This document shows positions 35,813 to 53,966 of a DNA stretch of 64,000 nt, one piece after another. Source of the DNA: an uncultured Gemmatimonadales bacterium. GTDB taxonomy: Bacteria; Gemmatimonadota; Gemmatimonadetes; Gemmatimonadales; GWC2-71-9. Where the stretch lies: the NCBI GenBank assembly GCA_963771275.1, contig CAVYSW010000003.1:416001-480000 (forward strand). The letters are read 5' to 3'. How positions within the stretch are numbered: position 1 is the stretch's first letter; every line of letters starts with the position of its first letter. Made by a program: the position numbers and the translations under genes. Below the pieces are notes generated by a model. It worked only from the letters and a program-made list of their open reading frames with translations. It did no database searches and was not told the DNA's origin.

Positions 35813-36986
35813 GAACGGGAAAGGTAGCCCGCCGACGGTGGTGGTCGAGCCGCGCGGCGCACGGCGCTGGCGACAGGGCCACCCCTGGATCTACCGGTCC
35901 GACGTCGTCGCCGGCGACGTCACGCCCGGGGTCGTCCACGTGACGAATCGGGCCGGCCGATTCCTCGGCCAGGCCCTGTGGAGCCCGGCATCGGAGATCC
36001 GGCTGCGCTTCCTCACGAGCGAGGCGGAGCCGGTCGGCCCCGACTGGTGGGCGCGCCGGCTCGGTGCCGCCCAGGCCCGCCGCGCAGCGCTGGATCCACC
36101 GGCTACCGCGTACCGCGTCGTCCACGCGGAGGGCGACGGTCTTCCCTCGCTCATCGTGGATCGCTACGGGCCCTACGTGGTGGCCCAGCTGCTGTCGGCC
36201 GGACTCGAAGCGGTACGCGCCGACGTCCTCGGGGCGATCGACGCGGTGCTCGCGCCCGACGCCGTGCTGTTGCGGAACGACGCGTCCGTGCGGCGCCACG
36301 AGGGCCTGCCACTCGCCGTCGAGCCGGTGCGGGGCACGGTCCCCGACCCGATCGAGGTCGAGGAGGGCGGCGTCCGCTACCTCGCGGCCCCCCGCACGGG
36401 GCAGAAGACCGGCGCATTCCTCGATCAACGCGAGCATCACGCGCTCATGGGGCGGCTGGCGCGCGGACGCGCGCTGGACCTGTTCTGCTACCACGGGCTG
36501 TTCGCGCTCCACATGGCCGGGCGCGCCGAGCGGGTGCTGGGCGTCGACTCCAGCACCGCCGCCCTCGCCGTTGCCGAGCGCAACCGCCAGCTCAACGGCC
36601 GGCGCAACGTGGCGTGGCAGGAGGGGAACGCGTTCGACGTGCTGCGGGAGCTGGAGCGCGCGGGCGAGCGCTTCGAAACGATCGTGCTCGACCCGCCGGC
36701 CTTCGCGAAGGATCGGGCGGCCGTGTCGGGGGCGCTGCGCGGCTACAAGGAGATCAACCTGCGTGCGATCCGGCTGCTCGCGCCGGGCGGCGTGCTGTTC
36801 ACGGCCTCGTGCTCGTTCCATGTGCACCGGGCGCAGTTCTTCGCGATGCTGGCCGACGCCGCGGCCGACAGCGGGCGCCGCGTGGTCCTGCGTCACACGC
36901 TCGGCCAGCCCGCCGACCACCCGGAGATCGTCACCGTTCCCGAGACCGGCTATCTGAAAGGCGCACTGCTGCACGTGACGGAGTGA
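35811..36986 (+). CDS. RlmI/RlmK-like class I SAM-dependent rRNA methyltransferase
   Basis: GHPWIY PUA start, GQKTGAFLDQRE, LDPPAFAK, ETGYLK. Confidence 0.92.
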   Translation: MNGKGSPPTVVVEPRGARRWRQGHPWIYRSDVVAGDVTPGVVHVTNRAGRFLGQALWSPASEIRLRFLTSEAEPVGPDWWARRLGAAQARRAALDPPATAYRVVHAEGDGLPSLIVDRYGPYVVAQLLSAGLEAVRADVLGAIDAVLAPDAVLLRNDASVRRHEGLPLAVEPVRGTVPDPIEVEEGGVRYLAAPRTGQKTGAFLDQREHHALMGRLARGRALDLFCYHGLFALHMAGRAERVLGVDSSTAALAVAERNRQLNGRRNVAWQEGNAFDVLRELERAGERFETIVLDPPAFAKDRAAVSGALRGYKEINLRAIRLLAPGGVLFTASCSFHVHRAQFFAMLADAAADSGRRVVLRHTLGQPADHPEIVTVPETGYLKGALLHVTE

Positions 36987-37052
36987 CCAGCCACACACCG
37001 GGCGTTTTCGTCGTTTGTTCGCGTGTTGACAGCGCCCTGAGCCCCCACGACC

Positions 37053-37883
37053 TTGCAGCATGGCTTCCGCCCGCCGGCCGTGCTGACCGAGCCCCTCCCC
37101 CAGCGACGCCGTCGGCGACCGCTTTCGCTGCGACAGGAGTACGAGGAGTTCATCCTCCAGCGCATCGAGGACTACAAGAACCAGCTGAGCCGCGAGCAGA
37201 TCCTCTCCCTGGGCGACGAGGCCGTACGCGAGCTCGAGGTCGGTCCCGCGGGACAGCTGCTGCTCACCGAGGTCCTCATGCTCGAGCATGTGGACCGGCT
37301 GATCACGCGCCGGCTGCGCCTGCCGACCTTCCGGCGCTGGCGTGACCGGCACACGCGGATGCGCAAGGCGCAACGCGAGCTGACGCACTGGGGGCTCGCC
37401 GCCGATCTACCCCTGGCCGCCCTGGCCCAGCGCCTCGAGGAGGACGAGCCGGTCGTGGTGATCGGGGCCGCGGCGGCCGGCACGGCGTTCTACCTCGCGG
37501 CGCACGACGTTGTGGCCCTGGTGATTGCCGAGTCGCTGCCGGCCGTGGAGGCGATCGAGACCCAGGCGGCCCAGGAAGCCCTGGCGGGGCGCGTGCAGGC
37601 GCTGGTGGTGGCGCTGGGCGACTGGTTCCCGGACGTCGAGCCCGCGCTCGCGGTCGTGGACCCCGCCGTGTTCGCGACGCTCGACGCCTCCGCGCGCGTA
37701 CGCGCCATGGACGTGCTGCGCGAGCGGACGGTGCACCGCGGCGTCCACCTGATTCTCCCCGTCGAGCAGCGCAGCGACGTGCGCTCGCTCGCGCCGGAGG
37801 CGCTGCTGGCGCATTACGCGGGCTGGCAGGTCGAGCGCAGTCCCCGTGCCCGCGGTCGCTGGTTTCTCGCGATCAAGCCCTGA
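37053..37883 (+). CDS. Hypothetical protein, possible degenerate Rossmann/methyltransferase-like C-terminus
   Basis: Coding-like codon pattern; co-oriented between the rlmI-like gene and fdhF; start uncertain. Confidence 0.65.
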   Translation: MQHGFRPPAVLTEPLPQRRRRRPLSLRQEYEEFILQRIEDYKNQLSREQILSLGDEAVRELEVGPAGQLLLTEVLMLEHVDRLITRRLRLPTFRRWRDRHTRMRKAQRELTHWGLAADLPLAALAQRLEEDEPVVVIGAAAAGTAFYLAAHDVVALVIAESLPAVEAIETQAAQEALAGRVQALVVALGDWFPDVEPALAVVDPAVFATLDASARVRAMDVLRERTVHRGVHLILPVEQRSDVRSLAPEALLAHYAGWQVERSPRARGRWFLAIKP

Positions 37884-37937
37884 GGGCCTCCGCGGCGGCA
37901 TTGCGCCGCCGGCCGGCGCGAAGCCACCTTTCGGTGC

Positions 37938-40886
37938 ATGCCCAGCCTGCAGATCGACGGGTCACGCATCGACGCCCCCGAAGGGGCGACCATTCTCGCG
38001 GCCGCGCGCGCCGCCGGCATGGCCATCCCGACCCTGTGCTGGTATCCCAAGCTCCCGGTCGTCGGCAACTGCCGCATTTGCGTGGTCGCGGTCGCCGGAG
38101 AGGCGAAGCTGCTTCCCGCCTGCGCCACGGTCGTGGCGGAGGGCATGCGGGTGCAGACGGAGACCCCGGAGGTCGTCGCGGCGCGCCGCGGCGTGCTGCG
38201 ATTCCTGCTGGAGCGCTACCCTGCCGACCACCTGCTGACCGGCGGCCGGACCACCCCGCGCAATGAGTTCGAGGAGTACGTGGTCCGCTACGGCGTGACG
38301 CCGCGGCCGGCGGCGCAGCATGCCCTGCCGCTGCGCGCCGGCGACGAGCGGCCCGGCGACCCGATGATCGCCCACGACATGAGCCTGTGCATCCTGTGCA
38401 CGCGCTGCGTGCGGGCGTGCGAGGACATCCAGGTGGTGGGCGTGCTCGACGTGGCGCATCGCGGCGACCGTGCCCAGATCATCGTGGGCGCCGACGGCGA
38501 CCCCGACAAGGCGCACTGCACGTGGTGCGGGGAGTGCGTCCGCGTCTGCCCGACGGGGGCGATCTTCGAGGTGATTCCCCGGGAGCGGTTCGGGACGGCG
38601 CGGGTGACGCCCGACCGGGTCGTCCGCTCGGTGTGCCCGTACTGCGGCGTCGGCTGTCAGGTGGACCTGCACGTCAAGGACAATGCAGTGGTGCGCGTCA
38701 CGTCGCCGTCCTTCGAGGAGGTGACCCCCAACGACGGCTCCACGTGCGTCAAGGGTCGGTTCGGCTACGACTTCACGCAGCACCGCGATCGCCTGACCAG
38801 GCCGCTGATCCGCAAGGGCTGGGAGCGGCGCGACGGCGGCTGGGCGTGGACCGGCCCGACCGACGCGCGGCGCCGCGCCGGCCCGTGGCACAGCATGACC
38901 GAGGAGGGGGCCCAGTCCAAGCCGCCTGCCCCACCCCGGGCGGTCGGCAAGCGGATCCGCGACCTGCCGCTGCTCGAGCGCGTGACCCAGGACATCCGCG
39001 ACCGGGCCACCACGCCGGCTGCGTGGTACGAGCCGTTCCGCGAGGCGACGTGGGACGAGGCGCTCTCGCTCGTGAGCCAGGAGCTGGTGCGGGTGCACCG
39101 CGCGCACGGCGCCGAGGCGATGGCGGTATTCCAGAGCGCCAAGTGCACGAACGAGGAGAACTACCTGCAGCAGCGGCTGTTCCGCGCCGCGTTCGGCACC
39201 AACAACATCGACCACTGCACGCGACTGTGTCACTCCACCAGCGTGTCGGCGATGCAGGACGCGCTCAGCACGGCCGCGGCGTCGGGATCGATGCGCGAGG
39301 TGGAGGAGGCCTGCGACGTGATCCTGATCGCCGGCGCCAACACGACCGAGACGCACCCCGTGTTCGGGGCGGCGATCAAGCGCGCGCAACGGCGGGGCGC
39401 GTTCCTGATCGTGGCGGACCCGCGGCGGATCGAGCTTGCCGCGCGGGCGGACCTCCACCTGCAGATGCAGCCCGGCACCGACGTCGCGCTGTTCAACGCG
39501 ATGCTGCACCACATCCTGGCGGCGGGTCTCGAGGACCGCGGGTTCATCGCGTCGCGCACCAACGGCTTCGACGCGGTGCGGGCCGCCGTGGCGCCCTACA
39601 CGCCCGAGCGGGCCGCGGCGATCACCGGCGTGCCGGCCGGGCTGATCCGTGCGGCCGCCGAGCGCTACGCGCGCGGGCCCAACACCACGACGATCTGGGC
39701 CATGGGCCTGACGCAGCACCTCACCGGCCACGACATGGTGACGGCGCTCCTCAACCTGATCCTCGCCACGGGGATGATCGGCCGGTGGGGCAGCGCCATG
39801 CTGCCGGTCCGCGGACAGAACAACGTGCAAGGCGCTTCCGACATGGGCGCCATCCCGTTCGTGTACCCGGACTACCAGCCGGTAGCCGATCCGGCCATTC
39901 GCGCCAAGTTCGCCGCGGCGTGGGGCGTGGACCCGGAAACGATGTCGCTCACGCCCGGGCTCAAGGTGACGGAAATGGCGCGGGAGGGCTCACCGATCCG
40001 CGCGCTGTACATCATGGGCGAGAACCCGATCATCTCCGACCCCGACATCGCGCATGCCGAGGCGTGGTTCCGCACGGTCGAGTTCCTCACGGTGCAGGAC
40101 CTGTTCCTCACCGAGACGGCGCGCTACGCGGACGTGGTGCTGCCGGGCGGCTCGTTTGCCGAAAAGACCGGCACGTTCGCCAACACGGAGCGGCGGATCC
40201 AAGTCGCCGACAAGGCGGTCGAGCCGCCTGGCGAAGCACGCGCGGATTGGGAGATCCTCGTGGATCTGTCGCGGCGCGTTGGCCTCGCCACGCCGTTCGC
40301 GTCGCCCGAGCAGGTGATGGAGGAAATCAGCCAGCTCGCGCCGGCGTGGGCCGGCATCACCTACCAGCGGCTGCGGGCCGGCGGGCTCCAGTATCCGGTC
40401 CCCACCGCCGACCACCCCGGCACGGCGTTCCTGTTCGGCGAGCGGTTCCCCACCACCGATGGCCGGGCGACGTTCCACGCCGTCGAGTACGCGGACCCCG
40501 GCGAGCTGCCCGACGCGGAGTATCCGTTCGTGATGTGCACCGGCCGGCAGCTGTATCACTGGCACACCGGGACCATGACGCGGCGCTCGCGTGGCCTCGA
40601 CGCCCGCGAGCCGATCGCCACGGTCGAGGTGAATCCCGCAGACGCCGCCGACCTGGGGGTGAGCGACGGCGATCCGGTGCGGATCACGAGCCGACGCAAC
40701 TCGATGCTGATCGCGGTGCGCGTGTCGGACCGGGTAGCGCGGTGGCAGGTGTTCGTCCCGTTCCACTTCCGCGAGGCGGCGGCCAACTTGCTCACCAACC
40801 CGGTGCTCGAGCCGCACGCGAAAATGGCCGCGCTCAAGGTCTGCGCCGTGCGGCTCGAGGCGGTGGGCGCGCCGTCGCCGGCTTGA
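37938..40886 (+). CDS. fdhF: Formate dehydrogenase alpha-subunit-like molybdopterin oxidoreductase with N-terminal Fe-S domains
   Basis: 2Fe-2S (IPTLC..CRIC..C), two 4Fe-4S motifs, CPYCGVGC, HCTRLCHS (Cys ligand), RGQNNVQG. Confidence 0.9.
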   Translation: MPSLQIDGSRIDAPEGATILAAARAAGMAIPTLCWYPKLPVVGNCRICVVAVAGEAKLLPACATVVAEGMRVQTETPEVVAARRGVLRFLLERYPADHLLTGGRTTPRNEFEEYVVRYGVTPRPAAQHALPLRAGDERPGDPMIAHDMSLCILCTRCVRACEDIQVVGVLDVAHRGDRAQIIVGADGDPDKAHCTWCGECVRVCPTGAIFEVIPRERFGTARVTPDRVVRSVCPYCGVGCQVDLHVKDNAVVRVTSPSFEEVTPNDGSTCVKGRFGYDFTQHRDRLTRPLIRKGWERRDGGWAWTGPTDARRRAGPWHSMTEEGAQSKPPAPPRAVGKRIRDLPLLERVTQDIRDRATTPAAWYEPFREATWDEALSLVSQELVRVHRAHGAEAMAVFQSAKCTNEENYLQQRLFRAAFGTNNIDHCTRLCHSTSVSAMQDALSTAAASGSMREVEEACDVILIAGANTTETHPVFGAAIKRAQRRGAFLIVADPRRIELAARADLHLQMQPGTDVALFNAMLHHILAAGLEDRGFIASRTNGFDAVRAAVAPYTPERAAAITGVPAGLIRAAAERYARGPNTTTIWAMGLTQHLTGHDMVTALLNLILATGMIGRWGSAMLPVRGQNNVQGASDMGAIPFVYPDYQPVADPAIRAKFAAAWGVDPETMSLTPGLKVTEMAREGSPIRALYIMGENPIISDPDIAHAEAWFRTVEFLTVQDLFLTETARYADVVLPGGSFAEKTGTFANTERRIQVADKAVEPPGEARADWEILVDLSRRVGLATPFASPEQVMEEISQLAPAWAGITYQRLRAGGLQYPVPTADHPGTAFLFGERFPTTDGRATFHAVEYADPGELPDAEYPFVMCTGRQLYHWHTGTMTRRSRGLDAREPIATVEVNPADAADLGVSDGDPVRITSRRNSMLIAVRVSDRVARWQVFVPFHFREAAANLLTNPVLEPHAKMAALKVCAVRLEAVGAPSPA

Positions 40887-40901
40887 GGAGGGGCGAGGCT
40901 C

Positions 40902-41693
40902 ATGGATCTCGGAATCGCGGGGCGTGTGGCGCTGGTGTGCGGCTCGTCGAGCGGGCTGGGCCGTGCCATCGCCGCAGCCTTCGTGGAAGCCGGCTGCCGG
41001 GTGGCAATCAATGCCCGCACCCCGGCCACGCTGGCGCAGGCGGCCGACGCGCTGCGCCGGCACGCCACCGCGGACGTCGCGGCGTTTCCGGCGGACGTGA
41101 GCGTGCCCGCGGAGGCCACCGGGCTCGTGGAGCGCGTGCAGCACGAGCTGGGAGGCGTCGACATCCTGATCTGCAACGCCGGCGGCCCGCCGGCGGCACC
41201 GTTCGCCGACGTTCCGGCCGAGCAGTGGCAGGCCGCCCTCGCGCTGAACCTCCTGTCCACCGTGCATCTCTGCCGGACGGCCGTGCCGATCATGCGACGG
41301 CGCGGCTGGGGGCGCGTGGTCTGTCTCACCAGCGTCGCCGCCAAGCAGCCGCTGCCCGGCCTGATCCTGTCGTCCACCGCGCGCGCGGGGGTGCTCGGGT
41401 TCGCCAAGAGCCTCGCCGACGAGGTGGCGACCGCGGGCATCACGGTCAACGTGGTCTGCCCCGGATACATGCGCACGGGACGCGTCGAGGATCTCGCGGC
41501 CGCGCGGGCGGCGCAGAGCGGCCGTCGCATCGAGGACGTGCTGGCGGGGACGATCGGCAACATCCCGCTCGGCAGGATGGGCGAGCCGGAGGAGCTCGCC
41601 GCCGCGGTCGCGTTTCTGGCGTCCGAGCCCGCGCGCTATATTACCGGCGCCGTCCTCCAGGTGGACGGGGGGTTCACGCGGAGCGTGGTGTAG
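40902..41693 (+). CDS. SDR family oxidoreductase
   Basis: CGSSSGLG, NAGGP, NVVCPG, YITG..VDGG; YxxxK replaced by SSTAR. Confidence 0.9.
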   Translation: MDLGIAGRVALVCGSSSGLGRAIAAAFVEAGCRVAINARTPATLAQAADALRRHATADVAAFPADVSVPAEATGLVERVQHELGGVDILICNAGGPPAAPFADVPAEQWQAALALNLLSTVHLCRTAVPIMRRRGWGRVVCLTSVAAKQPLPGLILSSTARAGVLGFAKSLADEVATAGITVNVVCPGYMRTGRVEDLAAARAAQSGRRIEDVLAGTIGNIPLGRMGEPEELAAAVAFLASEPARYITGAVLQVDGGFTRSVV

Positions 41694-41768
41694 GGCGGCA
41701 CGGCGGCATGGCGCCAGCCCGGCCCGCGACCCGCACCGCCGTTCGACCATCCGTTCTACTGAGGTTTC

Positions 41769-42803
41769 ATGCGCGCCATTCGCAAGTCCCGCCCGGGCGC
41801 CGGTCTCGAAGTCTGTGACGTTCCCAAACCCTCGTACGGGCCCGCCGACGTGCTGATCCAGGTTCACCATGCCGGCGTGTGCGGCACCGACCTGCACATC
41901 GCCCAATGGGACGAGTGGGCCCAGGGCCGGATCAAGCCGCCCGTCGTGCTGGGGCACGAGTTCGCGGGCGAAGTCGTCGCCGTCGGCAAGGACGTGGACG
42001 AGTTCGCGCCCGGCGAGCTGGTCACCGCGGAAGGGCACATCGTGTGCGGGCACTGCCGGCAGTGCCGCACCGGCAACGGCCACATCTGCCAGCGCACGTC
42101 GATCATCGGAGTGGACCGGGACGGCGCGTTCACCGAGCAGATCGCCATGCCCGCGACCAACGTCATGGCGTTGGGCGGGATCCCCACCACCATCGGCGCC
42201 ATCATGGACCCGATCGGCAACGCGTTCCACACCGTGCTCACCGGCACCGAGGTGCCGGGGTCGTCGGTCCTGGTGCTGGGGTGCGGCCCGATCGGCTGCT
42301 TTGCCGTCGGCATCGCCCGCGCCGCCGGCGCGGTTTCGGTGATCGCAACGGACGTGAACCCCACCCGGCTGGAGCTGGCGCGCCGGATGGGCGCGCAGGT
42401 GCTGATCAACGCGCAGACGGACGACGTGGTGAGCCGCGTGCGCGACGCGACGGGCGGCGAGGGCGCAGACATCGTGTGCGAGATGTCCGGCCACCCCGGG
42501 GCGCTCGCGCAGGCGTTCAAGTCCGTCCGCCTCGGAGGGCGCGTCAATCTGCTGGGCCTGCCCAAGGGCGAAGTGACCCTCAACCTCTCGACCGACATGA
42601 TCTTCAAGGGCGTAACGGCCTACGGCGTCATCGGCAGGCGGATGTACGAGACGTGGCACCAGATGCGCACGTTTCTCGGGTCGGGCCACCTGGATCCCAT
42701 GCCGGTGGTCACTCACCGCTTCCCGCTGGAGCGGATCGACGACGCGCTCGAGGCGATCGCGTCGGGCGCCGCGGGGAAGGTGATCCTCGAGATCGCCGGG
42801 TGA
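41769..42803 (+). CDS. tdh: L-threonine 3-dehydrogenase
   Basis: CGTDLHI..WDEWAQ, GHEFAG, CGHCRQC, GCGPIG, GRRMYETW. Confidence 0.95.
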   Translation: MRAIRKSRPGAGLEVCDVPKPSYGPADVLIQVHHAGVCGTDLHIAQWDEWAQGRIKPPVVLGHEFAGEVVAVGKDVDEFAPGELVTAEGHIVCGHCRQCRTGNGHICQRTSIIGVDRDGAFTEQIAMPATNVMALGGIPTTIGAIMDPIGNAFHTVLTGTEVPGSSVLVLGCGPIGCFAVGIARAAGAVSVIATDVNPTRLELARRMGAQVLINAQTDDVVSRVRDATGGEGADIVCEMSGHPGALAQAFKSVRLGGRVNLLGLPKGEVTLNLSTDMIFKGVTAYGVIGRRMYETWHQMRTFLGSGHLDPMPVVTHRFPLERIDDALEAIASGAAGKVILEIAG

Positions 42804-43174
42804 TCATCGGGATCGGCACGGACGTGGCGGACATCGGCCGCTTCACCGCGGAGACGGGCCGCCACGGCGCCGACCTCCTCGCCGCGTTCCTCACGCCGAC
42901 GGAGCTGGCGGCATGCCGCGTCCACCCGCGCGGCCCCGCGGCCTCGGCGGCGCGGTTCGCCGCCAAGGAAGCCTGCGCCAAGGCGCTCGGCACCGGGGTG
43001 CTCGGCCGGCTGTCCTGGCAGGACATGGAGCTCCGCGAGACCGGCGCGGGCGCGACGCTCCACCTGACCGGCCGCGCACAGCAGCTTGCCGCAGCGCGCG
43101 GCGTCCGCGCCATTCACGTGAGCCTCACCCGGACCGCGCACCTCGCGGCCGCCGTCGTGGTCCTGGAAGGCTGA
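42800..43174 (+). CDS. acpS: Holo-[acyl-carrier-protein] synthase
   Basis: IIGIGTDV, ARFAAKEACAKALGTG, IHVSLT; GTGA overlap with tdh. Confidence 0.9.
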   Translation: MIIGIGTDVADIGRFTAETGRHGADLLAAFLTPTELAACRVHPRGPAASAARFAAKEACAKALGTGVLGRLSWQDMELRETGAGATLHLTGRAQQLAAARGVRAIHVSLTRTAHLAAAVVVLEG

Positions 43175-43215
43175 CGCCCACTTTGCTGGAGGCCTCGAGC
43201 CAGAGGGCATCGATC

Positions 43216-43458
43216 ATGGAAGACGCGATTCTGGAGTACATCCGCGGCGAGTACCTCGAAGACGATGACGACGTGGAGCTGACCGCGAGCACGCCGCTGA
43301 TCTCGAGCGGCATCGTGGACAGCTTCAGCATGGTGAGCCTCAAGCGGTTCCTCGAGAAGAAATATCAGATCTCCATTCCCGACGACGACGCTTCCGCCGA
43401 GGCGTTCGACACCGTCGCGAGCATCGCGCGAGTCGTGCGAAAGCAACAGGGAGCGTGA
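43216..43458 (+). CDS. Acyl carrier protein (DltC-like type)
   Basis: 80 aa acidic protein with GIVDSF phosphopantetheine site and FDTVASI. Confidence 0.9.
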   Translation: MEDAILEYIRGEYLEDDDDVELTASTPLISSGIVDSFSMVSLKRFLEKKYQISIPDDDASAEAFDTVASIARVVRKQQGA

Positions 43459-43459
43459 T

Positions 43460-44707
<1,248 letters not shown>

Positions 44708-44727
44708 GGCGCGACCGGCTGGACGAC

Positions 44728-47013
44728 ATGGACGAGCATCGCGACCGCTGGTGGACGTCTCCCACCGCTGAGCTCGGGAAGGTCGTGCAGCTCGACCTTC
44801 CCGAGCCGTTTCCCACCGTCTACGGCGGAGCCCTGCCGGCCATCCAGGTGAGCTACGAGGCCTGGGGCGAGCTCAACTCCGCCCGCGACAATGCCGTGCT
44901 GGTGATCCACCCAATGACCGCGGATTGCCACGTGACCGGCGAGTACACCGGGCAACCGCCGGGATGGTGGGAGCCGCTCGTCGGCCCGGGGCGCGCGCTG
45001 GATACGGACCGGTTCTTCGTCGTCTGCCCCAACTTGCTGGGCGGGTGCTACGGCACCACCGGGCCGCGGTTTCCGGCGCCCGACGGAGAGCCCTATCTCG
45101 AGCGGTTCCCGTTGCTCACGCCGCGCGACATGATGCGGGTGCAGCGGCGGTTTCTCGCCGCACTGGGCATCGAGCGCGTCGCGCTGGTCATCGGCCCGAG
45201 CATGGGCGGCATGATCGCGTGGGAGTGGGCAATCGAGGCCCCGGAGGCCGCCGCCCGCATCGCGGTGGTCGCGGCGCCGCTGCGGACGTCGCCGCACCAG
45301 ATCGGCCTCAACTGGCTGCAGCGGCGCGGCATCGAGCTGGACATCACGGGCGACGAGGTCGTGGCCACCCTGGGCCAGATGGTGGCGCGCGGCGTCGGGA
45401 TGCTGAGCTACCGCTCGCCCGTGGGTCTCGAGGAGAAGTTCGGCCGCGAGTGGTTCACGCCGCCCGGCTCCATCCTCAAGGAGCGCGGGATGTTCAACGT
45501 CGAGTCGTGGCTGCGCCACCAGGGACGGCGCATCACGCAGCGCTTCGACCCCTATACGTACCTGCTGTTCAGCCGCGCGATGGACCTGCACGACGTGAGC
45601 CACGGGCGCGGCTACCTGGTGTCGGCGCTCTCCGGGGTGCGCGCCCGGGTCCTAGTGCTGGGCATCAGCTCCGACAACCTGTATCCACCGGCCGAGGTGA
45701 AGCATGGCGCGGACCTGCTCGATCACCTCGGCGCCGACGTGCGGTACGAGGAGATCCACTCCCCCAACGGCCACGACGCGTTCCTGCTCGATACCGACCA
45801 GCTCGACGAGATCCTGCGCGGCTTTCTGGCCGACCGGCGGGCCCGCGCGTCCCAGCCGAGCCTGCGGGAGGTCCGCCGCGTCCGCGTGGGCGTGCTCGGG
45901 GCCGGCCGGGTCGCGGCCTCGTTCATCCGGCTCGTCAGCGATCGCCAGGCGCACCTGGCACAGCACCACGGGCTGCAGATCGAGATCGGCGCCGTGGCGG
46001 AGATCGATCGAGAGAAGCCGCTCGATCCGGTGTTCGCGCAGCTCCCGCTCACGTACGAGCCCGAGACCCTGCCCGACCGCCAGGACCTGGACGTCCTGAT
46101 CGACCTCACCCGGGGCCTGCGCTCGTTGCCGCTCGTCGAGCGGACCCTGCGTCACCGCCGGTCGGTCGTGACGCCCAACAAGATCCTGGTGCGCACGCAC
46201 GGCGACGCGCTCGATCGTCTCGCGTTCGAGTACGGCGCGCGCCTAGCGTACCACGATTCCATCGCGGCGGGCTGGCCGCTGATTCTCACGCTCGAGCGCT
46301 CGCTGTCCCAGGCGCTGGTGGTCGGGCTCGAAGCGGTCCTCTCGAGCGCGTGCAACGTGATCCTCGAGCTGCTGGAACAGGGCATGCCGCTCGATCGCGC
46401 CGTCGCGGAGGCGGTAGGGCGTGACCTCACCGAGCCCGATCCCGAGCTCGATACGTCGGGCTGGGACAGCGCGCAGAAGCTCATGCTGCTCCTGAGCCGC
46501 GCCACGGGCCATCGCTACCTCGGCCACGAGGTCGCGCTCCACGGGCTCGAGACGGTGGATGCCGCGCTGGTGCGGCACGCGCCCGCGCACGACCTGCGCA
46601 TCAAGCTCGTGGCGATGGCGGCGGAGCAGCATGGCCAGCTGGCGGCGACGGTACGGCCGATGGCGGTCCGCCGGGAGAGCCACTTGGGACTGGTGCGCGG
46701 ACCGAACAACGTCGTCGTGACGTACGCGCCGGACGGCACGGAAATGGTCTACTCCGGCACGGGCGCCGGCCCCCTCCCGGTCGCGACCGCGGTGCTCAAC
46801 GACCTGATCGGGTTGTTCGATCCGCAGCATTCCTGGACCGGGAGGTTCCCGGCGGTCAGCGTGCGGATGCAGGCCCTGCAGTTCGCCGCATGGGTCCACA
46901 TCGAGAACGGCCGGCTCCGGACCGGCACGAGCGAGCGACCGGGCGCGGTGCCGCTCGTTCCGACGGTTCGCCGAGACGGCGCGCCAGCCCGAAGCACACT
47001 GTCACGGGCATGA
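44728..47013 (+). CDS. Homoserine O-acetyltransferase (MetX) fused to a homoserine dehydrogenase-like domain
   Basis: N-half: YEAWGELN, GPSMGG, DNLYP, GHDAFL. C-half: VGVLGAGRV, VVTPNK, EPDPELDTSGWDSAQKL, GTGAG. Confidence 0.88.
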   Translation: MDEHRDRWWTSPTAELGKVVQLDLPEPFPTVYGGALPAIQVSYEAWGELNSARDNAVLVIHPMTADCHVTGEYTGQPPGWWEPLVGPGRALDTDRFFVVCPNLLGGCYGTTGPRFPAPDGEPYLERFPLLTPRDMMRVQRRFLAALGIERVALVIGPSMGGMIAWEWAIEAPEAAARIAVVAAPLRTSPHQIGLNWLQRRGIELDITGDEVVATLGQMVARGVGMLSYRSPVGLEEKFGREWFTPPGSILKERGMFNVESWLRHQGRRITQRFDPYTYLLFSRAMDLHDVSHGRGYLVSALSGVRARVLVLGISSDNLYPPAEVKHGADLLDHLGADVRYEEIHSPNGHDAFLLDTDQLDEILRGFLADRRARASQPSLREVRRVRVGVLGAGRVAASFIRLVSDRQAHLAQHHGLQIEIGAVAEIDREKPLDPVFAQLPLTYEPETLPDRQDLDVLIDLTRGLRSLPLVERTLRHRRSVVTPNKILVRTHGDALDRLAFEYGARLAYHDSIAAGWPLILTLERSLSQALVVGLEAVLSSACNVILELLEQGMPLDRAVAEAVGRDLTEPDPELDTSGWDSAQKLMLLLSRATGHRYLGHEVALHGLETVDAALVRHAPAHDLRIKLVAMAAEQHGQLAATVRPMAVRRESHLGLVRGPNNVVVTYAPDGTEMVYSGTGAGPLPVATAVLNDLIGLFDPQHSWTGRFPAVSVRMQALQFAAWVHIENGRLRTGTSERPGAVPLVPTVRRDGAPARSTLSRA

Positions 47014-47054
47014 ATCGTGCGGCGGTCACGAATCCCCAGCATGGGAAGGTCGCG

Positions 47055-48800
47055 ATGAGCAACATCGGTTCCTACGACGCGCGTCGCCGAGGCTTCACCT
47101 GGGAGACGGCCAAGGCGGTGCTTGGCTGGCAGGAGGGCGAGATCCTCAACATCGGCGCCATGTGCGCCGACCGCCTCTGCGCGCGGGGCATGGGAGGCAC
47201 GACCGCGCTGATCTGGGAAGGGTTCGGCGACAAGAAGGCCACCTACACCTTCGACGATCTGCGCGTCTACTCCAACGCCTTCGCCCAGTTGCTCGCCGAT
47301 CGGGGGATCCGACCGGGCGAGCGCGTCTGCATCTTCATGGACCGCATTCCCAGCCTCTACATCTCCTTTCTCGGCATCCTCAAGCTCGGCGCCATTGCGC
47401 AGCCGCTGTTTTCGGCGTTCGGCGAGGACTCGCTCGAAGTGCGCCTGGCCAACGCGGAAACCACCGCCGTGCTCACGACGGCCAAGCACGTGAAGAAGGT
47501 CCGCAAGATCCGTGACAGGCTCCCCGCGCTACGCCACGTCATCGTGGTGGATGGGGATCCGGGCAAGACGCACGCCGACGAGGTGTTCTTCGACGTGCAG
47601 GCGGCACCGCGCGTCGAGCACTTCCCCGTCTTCCCCGCGACCCCCGAGACGCCCTCGGTGCTGCACTACACGTCGGGCACCACCGGCCAGCCCAAGGGCG
47701 CGTTGCACGTGCACAGCTCCGTCTGGGGCCAGGCGCTCACCACCCACTGGGTCCTCGACCTGCAGCCGAACGACGTCTACTGGTGCACGGCCGATCCCGG
47801 TTGGGTAACCGGGACCAGCTACGGGATCATCGGACCCTGGACCCTGGGCGTCACCCAATGCGTGTTCGACGCCGGATTCCTCGCCGCACGCTGGTACCAG
47901 TTCATTCAGGACCACCGCGTCACGGTCTGGTACTCGGCGCCGACGGCGATTCGCTCGCTGATGCGCGAGGGAGACGACGTACCGAAGCGCTACGACCTCT
48001 CGTCGTTGCGACACCTCGCGTCGGTCGGCGAGCCGCTCAACCCCGAAGCGGTCCTGTGGAGCGAGCAGGTGCTCGGGCTCCCGTTCCACGACAACTTCTG
48101 GCAGACGGAGACCGGGGCGATGATGATCGCCAACTACCCCGGGATGCCGATCAAGCCGGGCTCGATGGGCAAGCCGTTCCCCGGCATCGAGGCCGCCGTG
48201 CTCGACCTCAAGACGCACGAGCCGATCGCGCAGCCCGGCAAGATCGGCCTGATCGCGTTCCGGCCCGGCTGGCCCTCTATGTTCCGGACGTACTGGAAGA
48301 AGGAGGACGTCTACCGCAGCAAGTTCGTCGGCGCTCCCGAGGGCGCCACACCCGATGCCCTGCGGACCGCGCGCGACATCTGGTACGTCTCGGGTGATCG
48401 GGCAAGCATCGATCCGGATGGGTACTTCTGGTTCGTGGGGCGCGACGACGACGTGATCAACACCGGTGGACACCTGGTGGGGCCGTTCGAGGTGGAATCC
48501 GCCTTGATCGAGCACGAGGCCGTGGCCGAGGCCGCGGTGGTCGGCAAGCCGGACGAGATCAACATGGAGGTCGTCAAGGCGTTCGTGGCACTCAAGTCGG
48601 GCTACACGGCGTCGGCGGAGCTGGAGCTCGACATCATGAACTTCGTCCGCAAGAAACTCTCGCCCCTGGCGATGCCGCAGGAGATCGAGTTCCGCGACAA
48701 GCTCCCCAAGACGCGCTCGGGGAAGATCCTGCGGCGGTACCTGCGCGCCCTGGAGTGGGGTGACGAGCCGGGCGACTTGTCGACCCTGGAAGACGACTAG
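47055..48800 (+). CDS. acsA: Acetate--CoA ligase-like adenylating enzyme
   Basis: YTSGTTGQPKG, WCTADPGWVTG, FWQTETG, PKTRSGKILRR. Confidence 0.9.
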   Translation: MSNIGSYDARRRGFTWETAKAVLGWQEGEILNIGAMCADRLCARGMGGTTALIWEGFGDKKATYTFDDLRVYSNAFAQLLADRGIRPGERVCIFMDRIPSLYISFLGILKLGAIAQPLFSAFGEDSLEVRLANAETTAVLTTAKHVKKVRKIRDRLPALRHVIVVDGDPGKTHADEVFFDVQAAPRVEHFPVFPATPETPSVLHYTSGTTGQPKGALHVHSSVWGQALTTHWVLDLQPNDVYWCTADPGWVTGTSYGIIGPWTLGVTQCVFDAGFLAARWYQFIQDHRVTVWYSAPTAIRSLMREGDDVPKRYDLSSLRHLASVGEPLNPEAVLWSEQVLGLPFHDNFWQTETGAMMIANYPGMPIKPGSMGKPFPGIEAAVLDLKTHEPIAQPGKIGLIAFRPGWPSMFRTYWKKEDVYRSKFVGAPEGATPDALRTARDIWYVSGDRASIDPDGYFWFVGRDDDVINTGGHLVGPFEVESALIEHEAVAEAAVVGKPDEINMEVVKAFVALKSGYTASAELELDIMNFVRKKLSPLAMPQEIEFRDKLPKTRSGKILRRYLRALEWGDEPGDLSTLEDD

Positions 48801-48860
48801 GTGCCGGTCCAGCGCAGCAGACGTAAAGCAAAGCATAACATGGAGATAGCAAGCGTTGAC

Positions 48861-48890
48861 GGCCCCACCCGGGCGACCCCGGGTGGGGCC
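48861..48890. terminator. Hairpin after acsA
   Basis: GGCCCCACCCGG-GCGACC-CCGGGTGGGGCC; no U tract. Confidence 0.5.
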
Positions 48891-49244
48891 TCCGCATGAC
48901 GGGGCCGGCACGATGCCCCGCGGCAGGTCGGGAGGGAGGCGTGCGGCCTGTCACGGAATTCCTGGCCGCCGCACGTAGCTTTGTGGCGGTCGCGCGCTTC
49001 AAGTAGTTTCGCGACCTCGGCTCTTAACCTCCCTGTTCCCAATGTGGTAGAACGGGGTGTCCTTGGCCGCCGGGCTCGCGTTTTTCAGCGTCGGGCCCTA
49101 TTTTCGGGGGACTTGGCAGGCCGGGTCGCGGTTGGGGACCCGCTCACATCACGTTCTGGGGTTCAGGCGGTCCGCGGACCGCGCGGTGAGCCGGCGCCGC
49201 AGCCACGGTCGCTCGCGCCCACACTGGCTCGGAGGGAAGGACTG

Positions 49245-49928
49245 ATGCGCAGACTACCGGGAGTCGTGGTACTGGGCGCGCTGCTTGCGGCGGCGCCGCT
49301 GCACGCGCAGGGGACCGGCTGGCAGAACATGTGGTTCTGGGGCATTCACGGGGGCCTGAGCGCGTACAAGACGCCGACCACGGGAACCTCGACCCAGTTC
49401 GCCGTCGACGTTGGTGCGCACTGGCTGATCACCGGCAGGCGCATGGGCCTATATCTCGCCTACGACCAGCAGTTCTATCCCAATGGCCCATCGACCGCCC
49501 CGGGGAACCCCACGTCACAGATCACCGATCCCACCTCGGGGACCGGCGTGCGGGACGTGCAGTTCGATCGGGGCCGCTACATCCAGGGCGACCTGCTCGC
49601 CATCCCGCTGAACGGCCCGCTGCAGATCTATGTGGGCGCCGGGTTCACGATTCAGAACATCAGCGACGCCGTCCCCATGGGCAGCTTCGCGACGCCGGAC
49701 GACCAGGCCGCCTCACAGGCCCTCGTGAACGATGCCGCGAGCCGTGCGTTCCTGAACTTCATGGGCGGCTTCCAGCTGCTGCTACAGGGCAAGTTCGCCG
49801 TGTTCGGGCACTACGAGTTCATTCCGTCGGCGAAGAACTTCCTGCTCTCGTCCGAGCAGCATGTGCTCTCGGGCGGTGTGCGCATCGCCCTTTCGGGGCG
49901 GCGCGAGGACGTCGGCATCGAGCGGTAG
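49245..49928 (+). CDS. Exported hypothetical protein, probable outer-membrane beta-barrel
   Basis: GGAGG RBS, signal peptide ending LHAQ, aromatic beta-strands. Confidence 0.7.
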   Translation: MRRLPGVVVLGALLAAAPLHAQGTGWQNMWFWGIHGGLSAYKTPTTGTSTQFAVDVGAHWLITGRRMGLYLAYDQQFYPNGPSTAPGNPTSQITDPTSGTGVRDVQFDRGRYIQGDLLAIPLNGPLQIYVGAGFTIQNISDAVPMGSFATPDDQAASQALVNDAASRAFLNFMGGFQLLLQGKFAVFGHYEFIPSAKNFLLSSEQHVLSGGVRIALSGRREDVGIER

Positions 49929-49951
49929 CCGCGCTTCATCTGCGGTTCCCT

Positions 49952-49989
49952 GTCGCGCCCGGGATCAGCACGCTGGTCCCGGGCGCGAT
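49952..49989. terminator. Long GC hairpin at the convergent junction, overlapping the mpg 3' end
   Basis: GTCGCGCCCGGGATCAGC-AC-GCTGGTCCCGGGCGCGAT. Confidence 0.5.
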
Positions 49990-50561
49990 GTCCAGGGGGA
50001 CCCCGCCTCGAGCAACCGCAATGGCCAGCTCGCGGCGCGCGTGACGCCGATGCGGGTGGTCACCAGGACCGGGCTGCGGCGCGCCCGAGCGGGCCGGAGA
50101 ATCCGCAGGCGCGGCCCGTCGAGCGGCAGCCCGTTCATGGAGCCGGTGATCCCCAGCGCCTGACACAAGCGGGACGGTCCGGAGCAGAGCCGGCGATCGT
50201 CCCGCGTGCCGCGCCGGCGGCGCATCGCCTCGAGTCCGGCCAGCGGCTCCAGCGCACGAATCAGCACGGCCGCGGGGTAGCCCTCCCGCTCGGTCACCGC
50301 GTTGCAGCACCAGTGCATGCCGTAGATGAAGTAGACGTACGCGGTGCCCGGCGGCCCGAACAGCCGGTCGTTCCGCGCCGTGCGGCGCCCGCAGTAGCCG
50401 TGGGCCGCCGGGTCGTGCGGTCCGACGTACCCTTCCACCTCGACAATCCGTCCTGAGGCGGACACACCCCGCACGTGGGTCTCGAGAATGCACCCCAAAA
50501 GGGCGCGCGCGACACGGACCGTGTCGCGCGCGTAGAACGAAGGCCTGAGCGGGACCGCTAC
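49965..50561 (-). CDS. mpg: DNA-3-methyladenine glycosylase (AAG/MPG family)
   Basis: FYARDTVRVARALLG, GRIVEVEGY, YVYFIYGMH, AVLIRALEP, SGPSRLCQALGI; start codon unclear. Confidence 0.9.
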   Translation of the reverse strand, partial: VAVPLRPSFYARDTVRVARALLGCILETHVRGVSASGRIVEVEGYVGPHDPAAHGYCGRRTARNDRLFGPPGTAYVYFIYGMHWCCNAVTEREGYPAAVLIRALEPLAGLEAMRRRRGTRDDRRLCSGPSRLCQALGITGSMNGLPLDGPRLRILRPARARRSPVLVTTRIGVTRAASWPLRLLEAGSPWTSRPGPAC

Positions 50562-50562
50562 G

Positions 50563-52371
50563 TCAGCTCTCGTCGGCCCCGTCCTTCGGCTGCCCGAGCA
50601 TCGCCCGCTGCAGAGCGGCGCTCATGCGCTTGAACAGGCTGCCCGCCTCGGCCCCCGGCTGCTCGGGCTCCTCGACGGGAGGCGGTGGTGGGGGAGGAGC
50701 CGGTCGGGCCACCACCTCCTGGCTTCTCTCCGGCGCGCGCGACGGCTCCGGGCTGGTGCGGCTCTCTTCCGAACCCAACCCAGGGGCCGATCGGTCGGCC
50801 GGCTCAGCCGGACCGCCTGCGCCGCGCCGACCTCGCCGGCCGCGCACCCCGCGATTGTAGGTGACGGGACCCACGGCAGCCGGCTCCTCCTGGGGAGGCG
50901 GGGACGCCGTCGGCTCGAACCGGCGTTCGGTCGTCACCGCAGGGGCACCCCCACGGGACCCGTGACGGAACCGGGGATTGCGGGGCGATTCCTTGGCGGG
51001 TCGCCCTTCACTTGCCACCGGGGGAGCGGAGTCCCGCGACGGAGCTGGTTCCCGCGTCTCATGCTCCGCACCACCTTCCTCACGTCCTCGCCGCCGGCCC
51101 CGACCGCCGCGCGCACCACGGCCGCCCCGCTCACCGCGCTCACCGCGACGGCGACCCTGCTCTCCCTCGGGCTTCCCGGGCTCCTGCTCGGCCTGGCCCT
51201 CGTCGGCCGCCGTCTCCGGGACGGGTGCCGGCCGAAGTCGGAGCAGGTAGGCGCCACCATCCGCCTTGGCGAGATCCACCACACCCGCGTCATGGGCCTG
51301 GCGCAGGAACCGCTGGAAGCGGCGGCTTTCGAGTACGGGGTCTTCGGCCCGCCCGTGCAGCTCCGCCATGCGCTCGCGCGCCTGTTCGGCGTCGGTGGCT
51401 TCCTCGCCCGTGGCGCCAAGGTCCTCGAGCGCCTGGCGCAGCAGGCCCAGCGCTTCCGCCAGCGTCATCCCCTCGGGCGCCGTTCGGCCACGCGGCGTCC
51501 CACCGCGCGGACGCTCACCACGCTCACCACGCCGGGCGCGCGGCTCGACGGTCGCCGGGCGCGGCACTGGCGCGGCCGAGCCGGGCTCGAGCTCCATCGG
51601 GACGTTGGCGTTCGGCCCCAGGGCGATCTCGTACTGGCCGTTCTCCATCTTGTTGAGCCGGAGCAGGCCGCGCCGCGCCGATTCCTGGAGGAACTTGCTG
51701 TACTTGCTGAAGCCCGCGTCCTTCTCGTCGAAGTTGGGATCGAGGTCCTGCATCACCTGCTTCAGCCGGTCGGAACGCATCACGTCGTTGGCCTGCTGCA
51801 TCCGGGTGGCGGATTCGACCACCAGCTCCCACGGGTCGCGTCGCCGATGCTCGACTTCGCCCTCCTTGATCAGGCCGGTCAGCTCGTTGTAGCTGTAGTA
51901 CTCGTCGCAGTTCTGGATCAGCAGGTCGCTGGACGATTCGCGCATCCCGACGCCGATCACATACTTGCCATACTCCTTGAGCTTGAGGACCAGGCTCGAG
52001 AAGTCCGAGTCGCCGGACAGCAGGATGTAGGTGCCGATCTCGGGCCGGGTGAAGACCAGCTCGAGCGCGTCGATCGCGAGCCGGATGTCGGTCGCGTTCT
52101 TCTTGTTGGAGCCGAAGGCCGGGGCGAAGATCAGGTCGATCGACGCCTCCGCCAAGGGCACGATGTACTGCGGATAGCGCCGCCAGTCGGCGTAGGCCCG
52201 CTGCACCGAGATCTTGCCCTTGAAGACCTCGGAGCTCAGCAGCCGCTTCAGCTGGACCTGGAGATCCGAGCGGATCCCCATCGTCACGTTGTCGAAGTCG
52301 ATTAGGAGCGCGGCGTTGGGAGCATGCCGCAGGGGTTCGGGATACGCGGCGGCTGTTCCCCGCCGGGTCAT
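50563..52371 (-). CDS. NYN-domain (LabA/PIN-like) protein with OST-HTH/LOTUS-like domains and a disordered tail
   Basis: LIDFDN, KNATDIRLAIDA, LSGDSDF; LKQVMQDLDPNFDEKDAGFSKYSKFL. Confidence 0.9.
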   Translation of the reverse strand: MTRRGTAAAYPEPLRHAPNAALLIDFDNVTMGIRSDLQVQLKRLLSSEVFKGKISVQRAYADWRRYPQYIVPLAEASIDLIFAPAFGSNKKNATDIRLAIDALELVFTRPEIGTYILLSGDSDFSSLVLKLKEYGKYVIGVGMRESSSDLLIQNCDEYYSYNELTGLIKEGEVEHRRRDPWELVVESATRMQQANDVMRSDRLKQVMQDLDPNFDEKDAGFSKYSKFLQESARRGLLRLNKMENGQYEIALGPNANVPMELEPGSAAPVPRPATVEPRARRGERGERPRGGTPRGRTAPEGMTLAEALGLLRQALEDLGATGEEATDAEQARERMAELHGRAEDPVLESRRFQRFLRQAHDAGVVDLAKADGGAYLLRLRPAPVPETAADEGQAEQEPGKPEGEQGRRRGERGERGGRGARGGRGRRRGREEGGAEHETREPAPSRDSAPPVASEGRPAKESPRNPRFRHGSRGGAPAVTTERRFEPTASPPPQEEPAAVGPVTYNRGVRGRRGRRGAGGPAEPADRSAPGLGSEESRTSPEPSRAPERSQEVVARPAPPPPPPPVEEPEQPGAEAGSLFKRMSAALQRAMLGQPKDGADES

Positions 52372-52376
52372 TTCAA

Positions 52377-53966
52377 TCACGTTGCGCTCAATTCCAGGCC
52401 GACGACCTGCGCCAGCTCCCTTCGCTTCACCTTCCCGCTCCCGGTCAGGGGGAAGGCGTCGAAGAAGCGGACGAGGTCCGGCACCTTGTTGCCAGCCACA
52501 TGGTCGCGGGCGTACGCCTTGAGCTCGTCGCCCGTCACGATTGCACCCTCCACCGGCACGACGCAGGCGCAGACGAGCTCCCCGAGGATCTCGTGGGGCA
52601 CGCCCACCACGCACGCGTCGTCCACCGCCGGATGCGTCCGGAAGATGTCCTCCAGCTCCCGCGGGTAGATGCTGTACCCTCCGCGGATGATCGTCTCCTT
52701 GCGCCGGCCCACGATGGTCACGTAGCCGCGCTCGTCCACGATGGCGAGGTCGCCCGTGAGGAAGAACCCCTCCGCCGTGAACGAGCGGCGCGTCTCCGTG
52801 GGCATGCGATGATACCCGGCCATCACGTTCGGCCCCCTGACCGCCAATTCCCCGACGGCCTCCGGCCCGTGCAGCGCGCCATCCGTCACATCCACCACCC
52901 GCACTTCCACCCCCGGAAGCGGCCGCCCGACTGTCTGCGTCCGCGCTTCGGCGTCGTCGTCGAACCGCGTGATCGTGATCGTCGGGCCGGTCTCGGTGAG
53001 CCCGTAGGCGATCTGCACGTCATTCCACCGGCGGATCCGCTGCACCAGGTCGGCGGATACCGGGCTGCCGGCCACGATGCCGGTCCGCACGGTGGACAGG
53101 TCCCGGCTCCCGAACGACGCATCGCGCATCAAGAGCTGGAACATGGTGGGCACGCCATGGACGACGGTGGCGCGCTCCCGCTGGATCAGGTCCAGCGCGG
53201 TGGCGGGCTCGAACCGGTCCTGCAGCACCAGCGTGGCGCCCGAGAGCACCGTGGTGAGCACCACGTGGGTACCGAAGACCGTGAACAGCGGAACGGCGCT
53301 CCACACCCGATCATCGGGGCGCAGCGCCAGCCCGTCCGCCGTCAACAGCGCCGTCTGCACCAGATTGCGGTGCGTCAGCACGACGCCCTTGGGCTTGCCC
53401 ATCGTCCCCGACGTGTAGATCAGGGCAAGCGGCGTGGTCCCGGGATCGCGGACCACCAGCGGCGCCGGCGTCTGGCGCCGGCCCCGGGCCACGAGATCCG
53501 CGAACTGGAAGATCCGGTCGTCGTACCACATCTCGTCCGGACCGACCGTGACCAGGTAACGCAGGTCAGGCAGGTCGGCGAACAACTCCTCGAAGGTCTC
53601 GAGGTACTCGAACTCGCCCGCCGACTGCGCCGCCACGGTGATCACCGCCTCGGCATGCCGCAGCTCGTACTTGAGCTCGTGATATCCCACCGAGGGATTC
53701 ACCGGCACCACCACGGCGCCCAGCCGCGCGGCCGCGAGCAGCGTGACGACCCACTCGGGGCCCCCCGGGAGATCGATCGCGATGCGATGCCCCTCGCCGA
53801 TCCCCAGCTCGCTCAACGCCGCCGCCAGCGCCGTCGCCTCGGCATCCACCTGCGCGTAGGTCATGCGCCGCGTGGCCGAGACGAGGCACTCCCGGCCCCC
53901 CTCTCGGGCAACCTGTTGCGCAAACGACTCGGCGAGGTGGTACGTCGTCAAAAGCCCTCCCCCCAT
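52377..53966 (-). CDS. Class I adenylate-forming enzyme (long-chain acyl-CoA synthetase-like)
   Basis: [40 protein letters not shown]; start may be TTG 53951. Confidence 0.92.

Follow-up and report, generated by a model that had tools for sequence, protein, structure and literature searches.

A carrier protein module in place of orthodox kbl behind tdh in an uncultured Gemmatimonadales bacterium

The question raised by this locus is why a carrier protein, and an enzyme that would prime it, should be encoded between tdh and kbl. The stretch analyzed here (the window) comprises 64,000 nucleotides of an uncultured Gemmatimonadales bacterium (contig CAVYSW010000003.1 of assembly GCA_963771275.1, positions 416,001 to 480,000), in which tdh is followed on the same strand by genes for a phosphopantetheinyl transferase (AcpS), an acyl carrier protein (ACP), glycine C-acetyltransferase (Kbl), a MetX::Hom fusion and an acetate-activating ligase (Acs). 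We find that the conserved unit is not this six-gene operon, but a core of (AcpS)-Acs-ACP-Kbl that constitutes a conserved, laterally spread module, and that in the window a Gemmatimonadota variant, the five-gene cassette AcpS-ACP-Kbl-MetX::Hom-Acs, has replaced the orthodox kbl in situ behind the native tdh. These observations suggest an undescribed variant of the textbook Kbl reaction, with protein-bound acetyl in place of coenzyme A (CoA). We refer to the synthase and ligase of the module as module Kbl and module Acs; G000 is the source genome, and other G and L labels denote sampled genomes and loci respectively.

Replacement of kbl behind tdh

Listing and translating the open reading frames (ORFs) reproduced the six co-oriented genes and all five spacings given by an earlier, sequence-only reading of the window (-4, 41, 1, 20 and 41 nt, in order from tdh to acs). 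Pfam and NCBIfam models confirmed the phosphopantetheinyl transferase and ACP that it had placed between tdh and kbl and, as it stated, there is no fatty acid synthase or polyketide synthase gene within the six-gene run. The same-direction run begins upstream of tdh with a molybdopterin oxidoreductase and then a short-chain dehydrogenase (SDR), and acpS, which has a GTG start, overlaps the tdh stop by 4 nt. The features are as follows.

37938 to 40886, plus strand: molybdopterin oxidoreductase, formate-dehydrogenase-alpha-like (FDH), with 2Fe-2S and 4Fe-4S domains (Pfam); native context
40902 to 41693, plus strand: SDR, FabG-like, 75 nt 5' of tdh; native context
41769 to 42803, plus strand: tdh, Zn-dependent L-threonine 3-dehydrogenase, native gene (NF003808, 433.2 bits, over the cut-off of 380; TIGR00692, 413.4 bits, under the cut-off of 458)
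42800 to 43174, plus strand: acpS, AcpS-type phosphopantetheinyl transferase, first gene of the cassette (TIGR00516, 85.4 bits, cut-off 59.8)
43216 to 43458, plus strand: ACP, 80 aa, attachment Ser36 in GIVDSFSMVSL (PF00550, 25.7 bits, cut-off 20.8)
43460 to 44707, plus strand: module kbl, glycine C-acetyltransferase (2-amino-3-ketobutyrate ligase) of the ACP-linked clade (TIGR01822, 586.3 bits, cut-off 493; NF005394, 575.7 bits, cut-off 460)
44728 to 47013, plus strand: metX::hom, homoserine O-acetyltransferase/homoserine dehydrogenase fusion, 761 aa in one frame (NF001209, 360.4 bits, cut-off 331, residues 20-372; Homoserine_dh PF00742, 115.8 bits, residues 517-694)
47055 to 48800, plus strand: module acs, short ligase of the Bacillus subtilis AcsA type, acetate-activating (NF003313, PRK04319, 751.5 bits, cut-off 729)
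48861 to 48890, plus strand: hairpin 3' of acs, a perfect 13-bp G+C stem without a T run
48981 to 49928, plus strand: dn1 ORF, native context, with homologues behind native kbl in relatives

For comparison we fetched ten loci from relatives, eight of which have the order FDH-alpha-like, SDR, tdh, kbl, dn1 and, further on, genes for an NYN-domain protein and an AMP-dependent ligase; the window has the corresponding tdh and dn1, with the five genes of the cassette between them. The proteins of these native loci are 65-75% (Tdh), 63-81% (FDH) and 59-70% (SDR) identical to those of the window, and native Kbl is 44-48% identical to module Kbl. The FDH-like molybdoenzyme lies upstream of SDR-tdh in five of the eight native loci and the SDR upstream of tdh in six, and a dn1 homologue is found behind kbl in all eight, as well as beside the cassette in L100, L021 and L056. 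Neither Pfam nor NCBIfam gave a match to dn1.

The source genome has no second Kbl, its sole other alpha-oxoamine synthase scoring 309 bits, and in its family 68 of 71 sampled genomes have a Kbl-like gene (E <= 1e-100; G057 counted as one row), most of them native-type genes scoring 415-490 bits. One relative, G068, has an AcpS-Acs-ACP-Kbl module apart from its native tdh-kbl locus. The cassette has a G+C content of 0.685-0.702, 2-4 points lower than that of its immediate flanks (0.72-0.73), which is weak evidence. Two other Gemmatimonadota metagenome-assembled genomes (MAGs), represented by L100 and L021, have the same cassette beside dn1 and the NYN and ligase genes, but inverted; both are without a Zn-dependent Tdh and have an SDR-type Tdh elsewhere. 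Of five module-bearing Gemmatimonadota compared with the source genome, four have a Zn-Tdh.

Several further observations concern these surroundings. The FDH-alpha-like and FabG-like SDR genes directly 5' of tdh-kbl are a conserved linkage in Gemmatimonadales (loci L130-L139). On the minus strand at 50563-53966 the window encodes an NYN-domain protein of 683 aa and another AMP-dependent ligase, of 529 aa; the two are a conserved downstream pair that also adjoins the cassette in L100 and L021. At L021:6142-8104, MetX directly precedes a remainder of module Acs consisting of its 242 C-terminal residues, and both Hom and the N-terminal part of module Acs are missing; this cassette appears to be decayed or misassembled.

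The hairpin 3' of acs described by the sequence-only reading was found as listed above, and the 110-nt stretch containing it has a folding energy of -56.5 kcal/mol (z = -4.44 against shuffles). The terminator scan did not pick it up, and gave two terminator-like sites, both on the minus strand, a lower number than shuffled sequences gave; the promoter scan gave no promoter-like site. We rejected a riboswitch or RNA leader, as an Rfam scan of 36000-51000 gave a single chance miRNA match (E = 0.014).

A core module in many phyla

Two back-translated patterns derived from the ACP alignment, searched with one genome per species, matched at least 590 stretches, at least 578 of which encode a relative of the ACP. 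We called the neighbors by tblastn at the best 80 of these at least 578 loci, in which the ACP is adjoined by Kbl in 75, Acs in 63, AcpS in 31, Zn-Tdh in four, MetX in three (all Gemmatimonadota) and Hom in one, several of the loci without a neighbor being at contig ends. The co-occurrence of ACP, kbl, acs and acpS that the sequence-only reading suggested surveying is conserved, but its six-gene operon is not the conserved unit. These 80 loci carry about 20 phylum-level labels, including Acidobacteriota, Gemmatimonadota, Myxococcota, Planctomycetota, Zixibacteria, Ignavibacteriota, KSB1, WOR-3, Calditrichota, Chloroflexota, Eisenbacteria and Delongbacteria, and nearly all are from uncultured organisms or MAGs. 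Some Acidobacteriota have the order AcpS-ACP-Kbl with Acs a few kb away.

Across phyla the module proteins are unusually conserved, with identities to the window of 61-80% for ACP, 64-82% for Kbl and 57-78% for Acs. Within the phylum, close ACP orthologues (at least 61% identity) are found in six of 151 sampled genomes, the source genome included, and their neighborhoods read AcpS-Acs-ACP-Kbl. All-against-all clustering of ORFs gave no further family common to more than 12 of 86 sources; one small cluster, from five loci, is an SDR-type L-threonine dehydrogenase (432 bits to 7OL1), and a Tdh of either the Zn type or the SDR type lies beside the module in about nine loci.

Some loci depart from the common pattern. 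In nine (L042, L048, L065, L069, L083, L084, L090, L025 and L077) a second Kbl paralogue, 53-59% identical, directly adjoins the module Kbl, and these paralogues fall outside the ACP-linked clade in the tree described below. The module Kbl at L035:7255-8496 has one in-frame TAG and the module Acs at L089:3651-5348 has an in-frame stop; in each case a pseudogene, a sequencing error or recoding is possible.

The MetX::Hom fusion is a cassette add-on found only in Gemmatimonadota, where it also occurs inside the cassette in G111 (71% identity) and L100. No other Hom or MetX was found in the source genome. Fused or in-frame adjacent MetX and Hom with 29-43% identity to the window fusion are present in G102, G091, G066, G135, G036 and G047, and the phylum search gave no close ACP match in any of these six genomes. 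No PF00742 was found in G039 and G133, which are relatives of 97-99% completeness, and in G046 and G126 it is part of a very long ORF (866-909 aa).

We also tallied pathway genes in 50 module genomes of unestablished completeness besides the source genome; related genomes are not independent, so we attach no statistic to these counts. A Zn-Tdh scores over cut-off in 13 of the 50 and slightly under it (337-356 bits) in four more, and 13 have a strong match to an SDR-type Tdh, giving a union of 29 genomes with any Tdh. Module Kbl is the sole Kbl-like gene in 17 of the 50, and Tdh is present in 15 of these 17 as compared to 14 of the other 33.

Sequence features of the module proteins

Module Kbl has the fold and PLP lysine of its family: PF00155 matches with 207.8 bits, K249 is invariant in 67 sequences, and it aligns end to end with 7BXP. 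We constructed a quick maximum-likelihood tree of 67 ACP-linked and 32 non-linked Kbls, using the second alpha-oxoamine synthase of the source genome as the outgroup and leaving out the Kbl of L035 with its in-frame stop. All 67 ACP-linked Kbls lie on one side of a branch (SH-aLRT 93), and the native Gemmatimonadales Kbls form a distant, separate clade (99). The Kbl of the window groups with those of L100 and L021 (99), within a 16-member clade that is otherwise from Acidobacteriota (100). The tree fits a lateral acquisition after which the native kbl was lost.

As signatures we took positions at which a residue is at least 90% fixed in module Kbls and at most 10% common to non-module Kbls, of which there are eight: V142, R140, D158, H167, H175, C269, K406 and G414. 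V142 is present in 97% of the 67 module Kbls, at a position where the xLNHAS motif of all 32 non-module Kbls has its Asn; module Kbl, unlike all of the non-module Kbls compared, is thus without the Asn preceding the PLP-stacking His. K406 and G414 are within a 13-aa C-terminal tail that 27-31 of the 32 non-module Kbls do not have. A 5-aa insert (YPxGx) was rejected as a module marker, since it is also present in non-module paralogues. One Kbl, in G141 (L101/L136), has a module-like C-terminal tail and the 5-aa insert with no ACP nearby and no ACP match in the genome, and could be either an intermediate or a remnant.

When the module Kbl dimer was folded together with the ACP, three runs gave scores of 0.52, 0.46 and 0.54, the score of the complex being 0.52, and each of three controls gave 0.00. 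At least 85% of contacts are common to the runs, and the partner pLDDT is at least 83. Of 157 solved complexes 116 reach the mark applied, as do two of 215 mismatches, and scores of 0.60 or less took in only 18 of the solved complexes, but both of the mismatches. The signature residues cannot be placed on a contact surface because the fold run reported no interface.

The residues D35 and S36 of the ACP are invariant in 81 sequences. Its earlier description as DltC-like is loosely true, but it scores 26 bits with the DltC model NF003464, well under the cut-off of 68. The best NCBIfam match is to an ornithine-lipid (OlsHI) ACP, at 61.6 bits and under the cut-off of 130. The presumed recognition helix following the attachment Ser is basic (SLKRFLEKKY, with K43 invariant and R44 at least 90% conserved) and acidic residues dominate towards the N terminus (EEDDD), a combination not known to be typical of AcpP. 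The source genome has a normal AcpP in a fabH-fabG-acpP cluster on another contig and a second AcpS-type gene elsewhere, and therefore the ACP and AcpS of the operon are extra copies.

Module Acs matches 9G79, B. subtilis AcsA, with 536 bits. In an alignment of 62 module ligases, W349 (the Trp of the FWQTE motif pointed out by the sequence-only reading), K557 (the catalytic Lys), R532 and L474 are each invariant. So are the aligned V, T and V, which we take to be acetate-pocket residues. W349 aligns with W414 of Salmonella enterica Acs (AcsSe), which sets its preference for acetate according to PMC10455477; the same source describes AcsSe R191, R526 and R584 as highly conserved and as belonging to the CoA pocket and the thioester-forming step. 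This set of three arginines is incomplete in module Acs. The position of R526 is occupied by Leu474, where B. subtilis AcsA, chain 8RPK and the canonical Acs of four relatives all have Arg, and R584 is kept as R532. The position of R191 varies (G, A, P, K or S) in a part where the alignment is uncertain, with an invariant R150 three residues on. R584 was rejected as a discriminating position, since by the same alignment it is kept in module Acs and is non-Arg in the canonical Acs of relatives. A basic stretch, T-Q-[RK]-K-H-x-x-K-V-R-[KR] at positions 141-151, is conserved in module Acs and is not present in B. subtilis AcsA. These changes would fit an altered second half-reaction, and are no proof of a change in thiol acceptor.

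Possible routes for the acetyl group

What we observe is the synteny, the ACP-linked Kbl clade, the signature residues, the replacement in situ, and the dedicated ACP and AcpS. On balance, and with considerable reservation, we consider it probable that acetate is loaded onto the private ACP and that module Kbl, together with Tdh, either joins the acetyl group to glycine or releases it from threonine. AcpS would prime the 80-aa ACP; module Acs would convert acetate to acetyl-AMP and transfer the acetyl group to the thiol of the ACP, in place of CoA or in addition to it; module Kbl would then interconvert glycine plus acetyl-S-ACP and 2-amino-3-ketobutyrate plus HS-ACP; and Tdh, as its family membership indicates, would interconvert 2-amino-3-ketobutyrate and L-threonine. 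We infer the acetyl loading of the ACP, the use of acetyl-ACP by module Kbl and the direction of flux. The earlier proposal that acetyl travels on a dedicated ACP is therefore supported from the Acs-type ligase to Kbl (by synteny, clade, residues and the kbl replacement), but its extension to MetX is unsupported.

The direction of flux can be suggested only tentatively. It is possible that the module runs in the biosynthetic direction, from acetate, glycine, ATP and NADH to threonine, and rather unlikely that it runs in the catabolic one; we lean to biosynthesis because the module includes an AMP-forming ligase, many hosts keep an orthodox Kbl, and here Hom and MetX, which are biosynthetic, accompany the cassette. 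In vitro the Tdh and Kbl reactions can proceed to threonine, and an AMP-forming Acs can work in reverse in a syntroph. By analogy with the use of ACP for fatty acid synthesis and of CoA for degradation, we lean towards an acetyl pool that the ACP may keep insulated. A more inclusive scheme, in which a widespread CoA-free route would take acetate on the private ACP and glycine via module Kbl and Tdh to threonine, and would here, at the tdh-kbl locus, form one threonine and methionine supply operon with Hom and MetX, possibly feeding acetyl-ACP to MetX, is more doubtful. The sequence-only reading suggested checking for missing thrB and thrC; both were found in the source genome, so we rejected a bypass of threonine auxotrophy there.

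Several points weigh against an ACP-borne acetyl group. With thrB and thrC present, threonine synthesis by the module route is unneeded here, and only 29 of the 50 module genomes have any Tdh. Because the ACP was used to collect the module set, its Kbls are 'ACP-linked' by construction, and the only informative test is the clade structure. The predicted complex of the Kbl dimer and ACP gives weak support, and the likeness of alpha-oxoamine synthase and ACP in the fold may be remembered from solved relatives. For the ligase, the R584 equivalent is conserved in all 62 sequences and the Arg191 position is ambiguous. Moreover, module Acs is the sole AcsA-like gene of the source genome, while four relatives have a canonical Acs; it is the sole Acs-like gene in 29-30 of the 50 other module genomes, and a canonical Acs scores over cut-off in 20. 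With canonical Acs this infrequent, it is disfavored that module Acs is merely a specialized paralogue, and it may be, or may also be, the housekeeping acetyl-CoA synthetase. Finally, both module Kbl and module Acs exceed the curated cut-offs of ordinary CoA-dependent families.

These last points are also what recommends a different explanation, that the genes are ordinary linked housekeeping genes in which module Acs makes acetyl-CoA, module Kbl uses it, and the ACP and AcpS serve some other or regulatory purpose. Module Kbl is likewise the only Kbl in the source genome and in 17 of the 50 others, and the catalytic residues, W349 and R532 are all kept. We nonetheless regard this as improbable, given that the ACP lies between Acs and Kbl in nearly all loci under about 20 phylum labels, that the ACP-linked Kbls form a clade with its own residues and tail, that Leu is invariant at the Arg526 position of module Acs, and that a second, dedicated AcpS often accompanies the module in spite of the AcpP that the genome already has. 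The shuttle envisaged by the sequence-only reading, in which Tdh and module Kbl would place threonine-derived acetyl on the ACP and MetX would use it to form O-acetylhomoserine for methionine without acetyl-CoA, would provide an outlet for acetyl-ACP, and in the window, G111 and L100 the MetX::Hom fusion is indeed positioned with Kbl on one side and Acs on the other, while the source genome has no other MetX or Hom. Because MetX adjoins the ACP in only three of 80 loci, all from Gemmatimonadota, it is not part of the core; it also passes the cut-off of the ordinary MetX equivalog, MetX-Hom fusions or adjacencies occur in other Gemmatimonadota for which the search gave no close match to the ACP, and no feature examined links MetX to the ACP or points to its use of acetyl-ACP. 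A link to MetX is possible only for this lineage, and we give the shuttle little chance.

About as little likelihood attaches to a different product, such as aminoacetone, formed via 2-amino-3-ketobutyrate, and the pyrazines or aminopropanol derived from it, or a short amino-ketone or amino-lipid head group built with a non-acetyl acyl group. It would account for the 21 of 50 module genomes in which no Tdh was found, for the altered residue beside the PLP-stacking His of module Kbl, and for the best family match of the ACP being, under cut-off, a lipid-pathway ACP. The acetate-pocket Trp is invariant, however, serine palmitoyltransferase (SPT) models give 243-307 bits with module Kbl against cut-offs of 500-670, no conserved reductase, acyltransferase or lipid gene lies beside the module, and here the cassette stands in for kbl behind tdh. 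A sphingolipid or amino-lipid reading was rejected on the low SPT scores, the acetate pocket of the ligase and the lack of conserved lipid genes nearby.

The closest characterized system to the one we favor, in which acetate would be carried by a private ACP to module Kbl, is AasR-AcpR-SPT of Caulobacter crescentus, Sphingomonas wittichii and Escherichia coli B, as presented in PMC9386255. There too a private ACP with an attachment Ser and an adenylating ligase are encoded beside an alpha-oxoamine synthase; in that system AasR acylates its specialized ACP, and the synthase prefers acyl-ACP. According to the same source, AasR takes long-chain fatty acids and the synthase condenses them with serine to a sphingolipid precursor, in Rhodobacteria; the module ligase is of the AcsA type with an acetate-pocket Trp, its synthase is of the Kbl type, and its hosts belong to about 20 mostly uncultured phyla. 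With orthodox Tdh-Kbl pairs (E. coli Kbl, 1FC4; Cupriavidus necator Kbl, 7BXP, to which module Kbl scores 476 bits) the module shares fold, PLP lysine, family and the place behind tdh. Module Kbl differs in its separate clade, V142, the 13-aa C-terminal tail and more fixed changes, and in that its proposed thioester partner would be a protein and not CoA. Similarly, module Acs resembles acetyl-CoA synthetases (9G79; S. enterica Acs, 2P2F) as a PRK04319 equivalog with the V/T/V/W pocket and catalytic Lys, but has an invariant Leu at Arg526 and a private ACP always encoded nearby and, unlike B. subtilis AcsA, the basic stretch at 141-151. Citrate lyase ligase, CitC, also loads acetate in an ATP-dependent manner onto a carrier-protein thiol, that of the citrate lyase acyl carrier subunit, for a C-C bond enzyme of central metabolism; its prosthetic group and protein families are different from those of the module, and no alpha-oxoamine synthase is involved.

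A literature search, with subscription journals and about 1.7 million PMC articles outside its coverage, gave no paper that describes the module. New in this analysis are the replacement of kbl at its site behind tdh, the cassette variant with MetX::Hom, the signatures Leu474 of module Acs and V142 of module Kbl, and the counts of Tdh, Kbl and Acs. Annotation pipelines name the module kbl and acs genes as textbook CoA enzymes. The window provides the cleanest natural experiment so far, with the cassette at the exact site of the orthodox kbl behind tdh, and the hypothesis is directly testable with four purified proteins. If a private acetyl-ACP is indeed used, several hundred species-level genomes from poorly known phyla would be mis-modelled at the threonine, glycine and acetate node, and this would be a second alpha-oxoamine synthase fed by its own acyl-ACP synthetase, after the SPT of sphingolipid synthesis, and one that acts in central metabolism.

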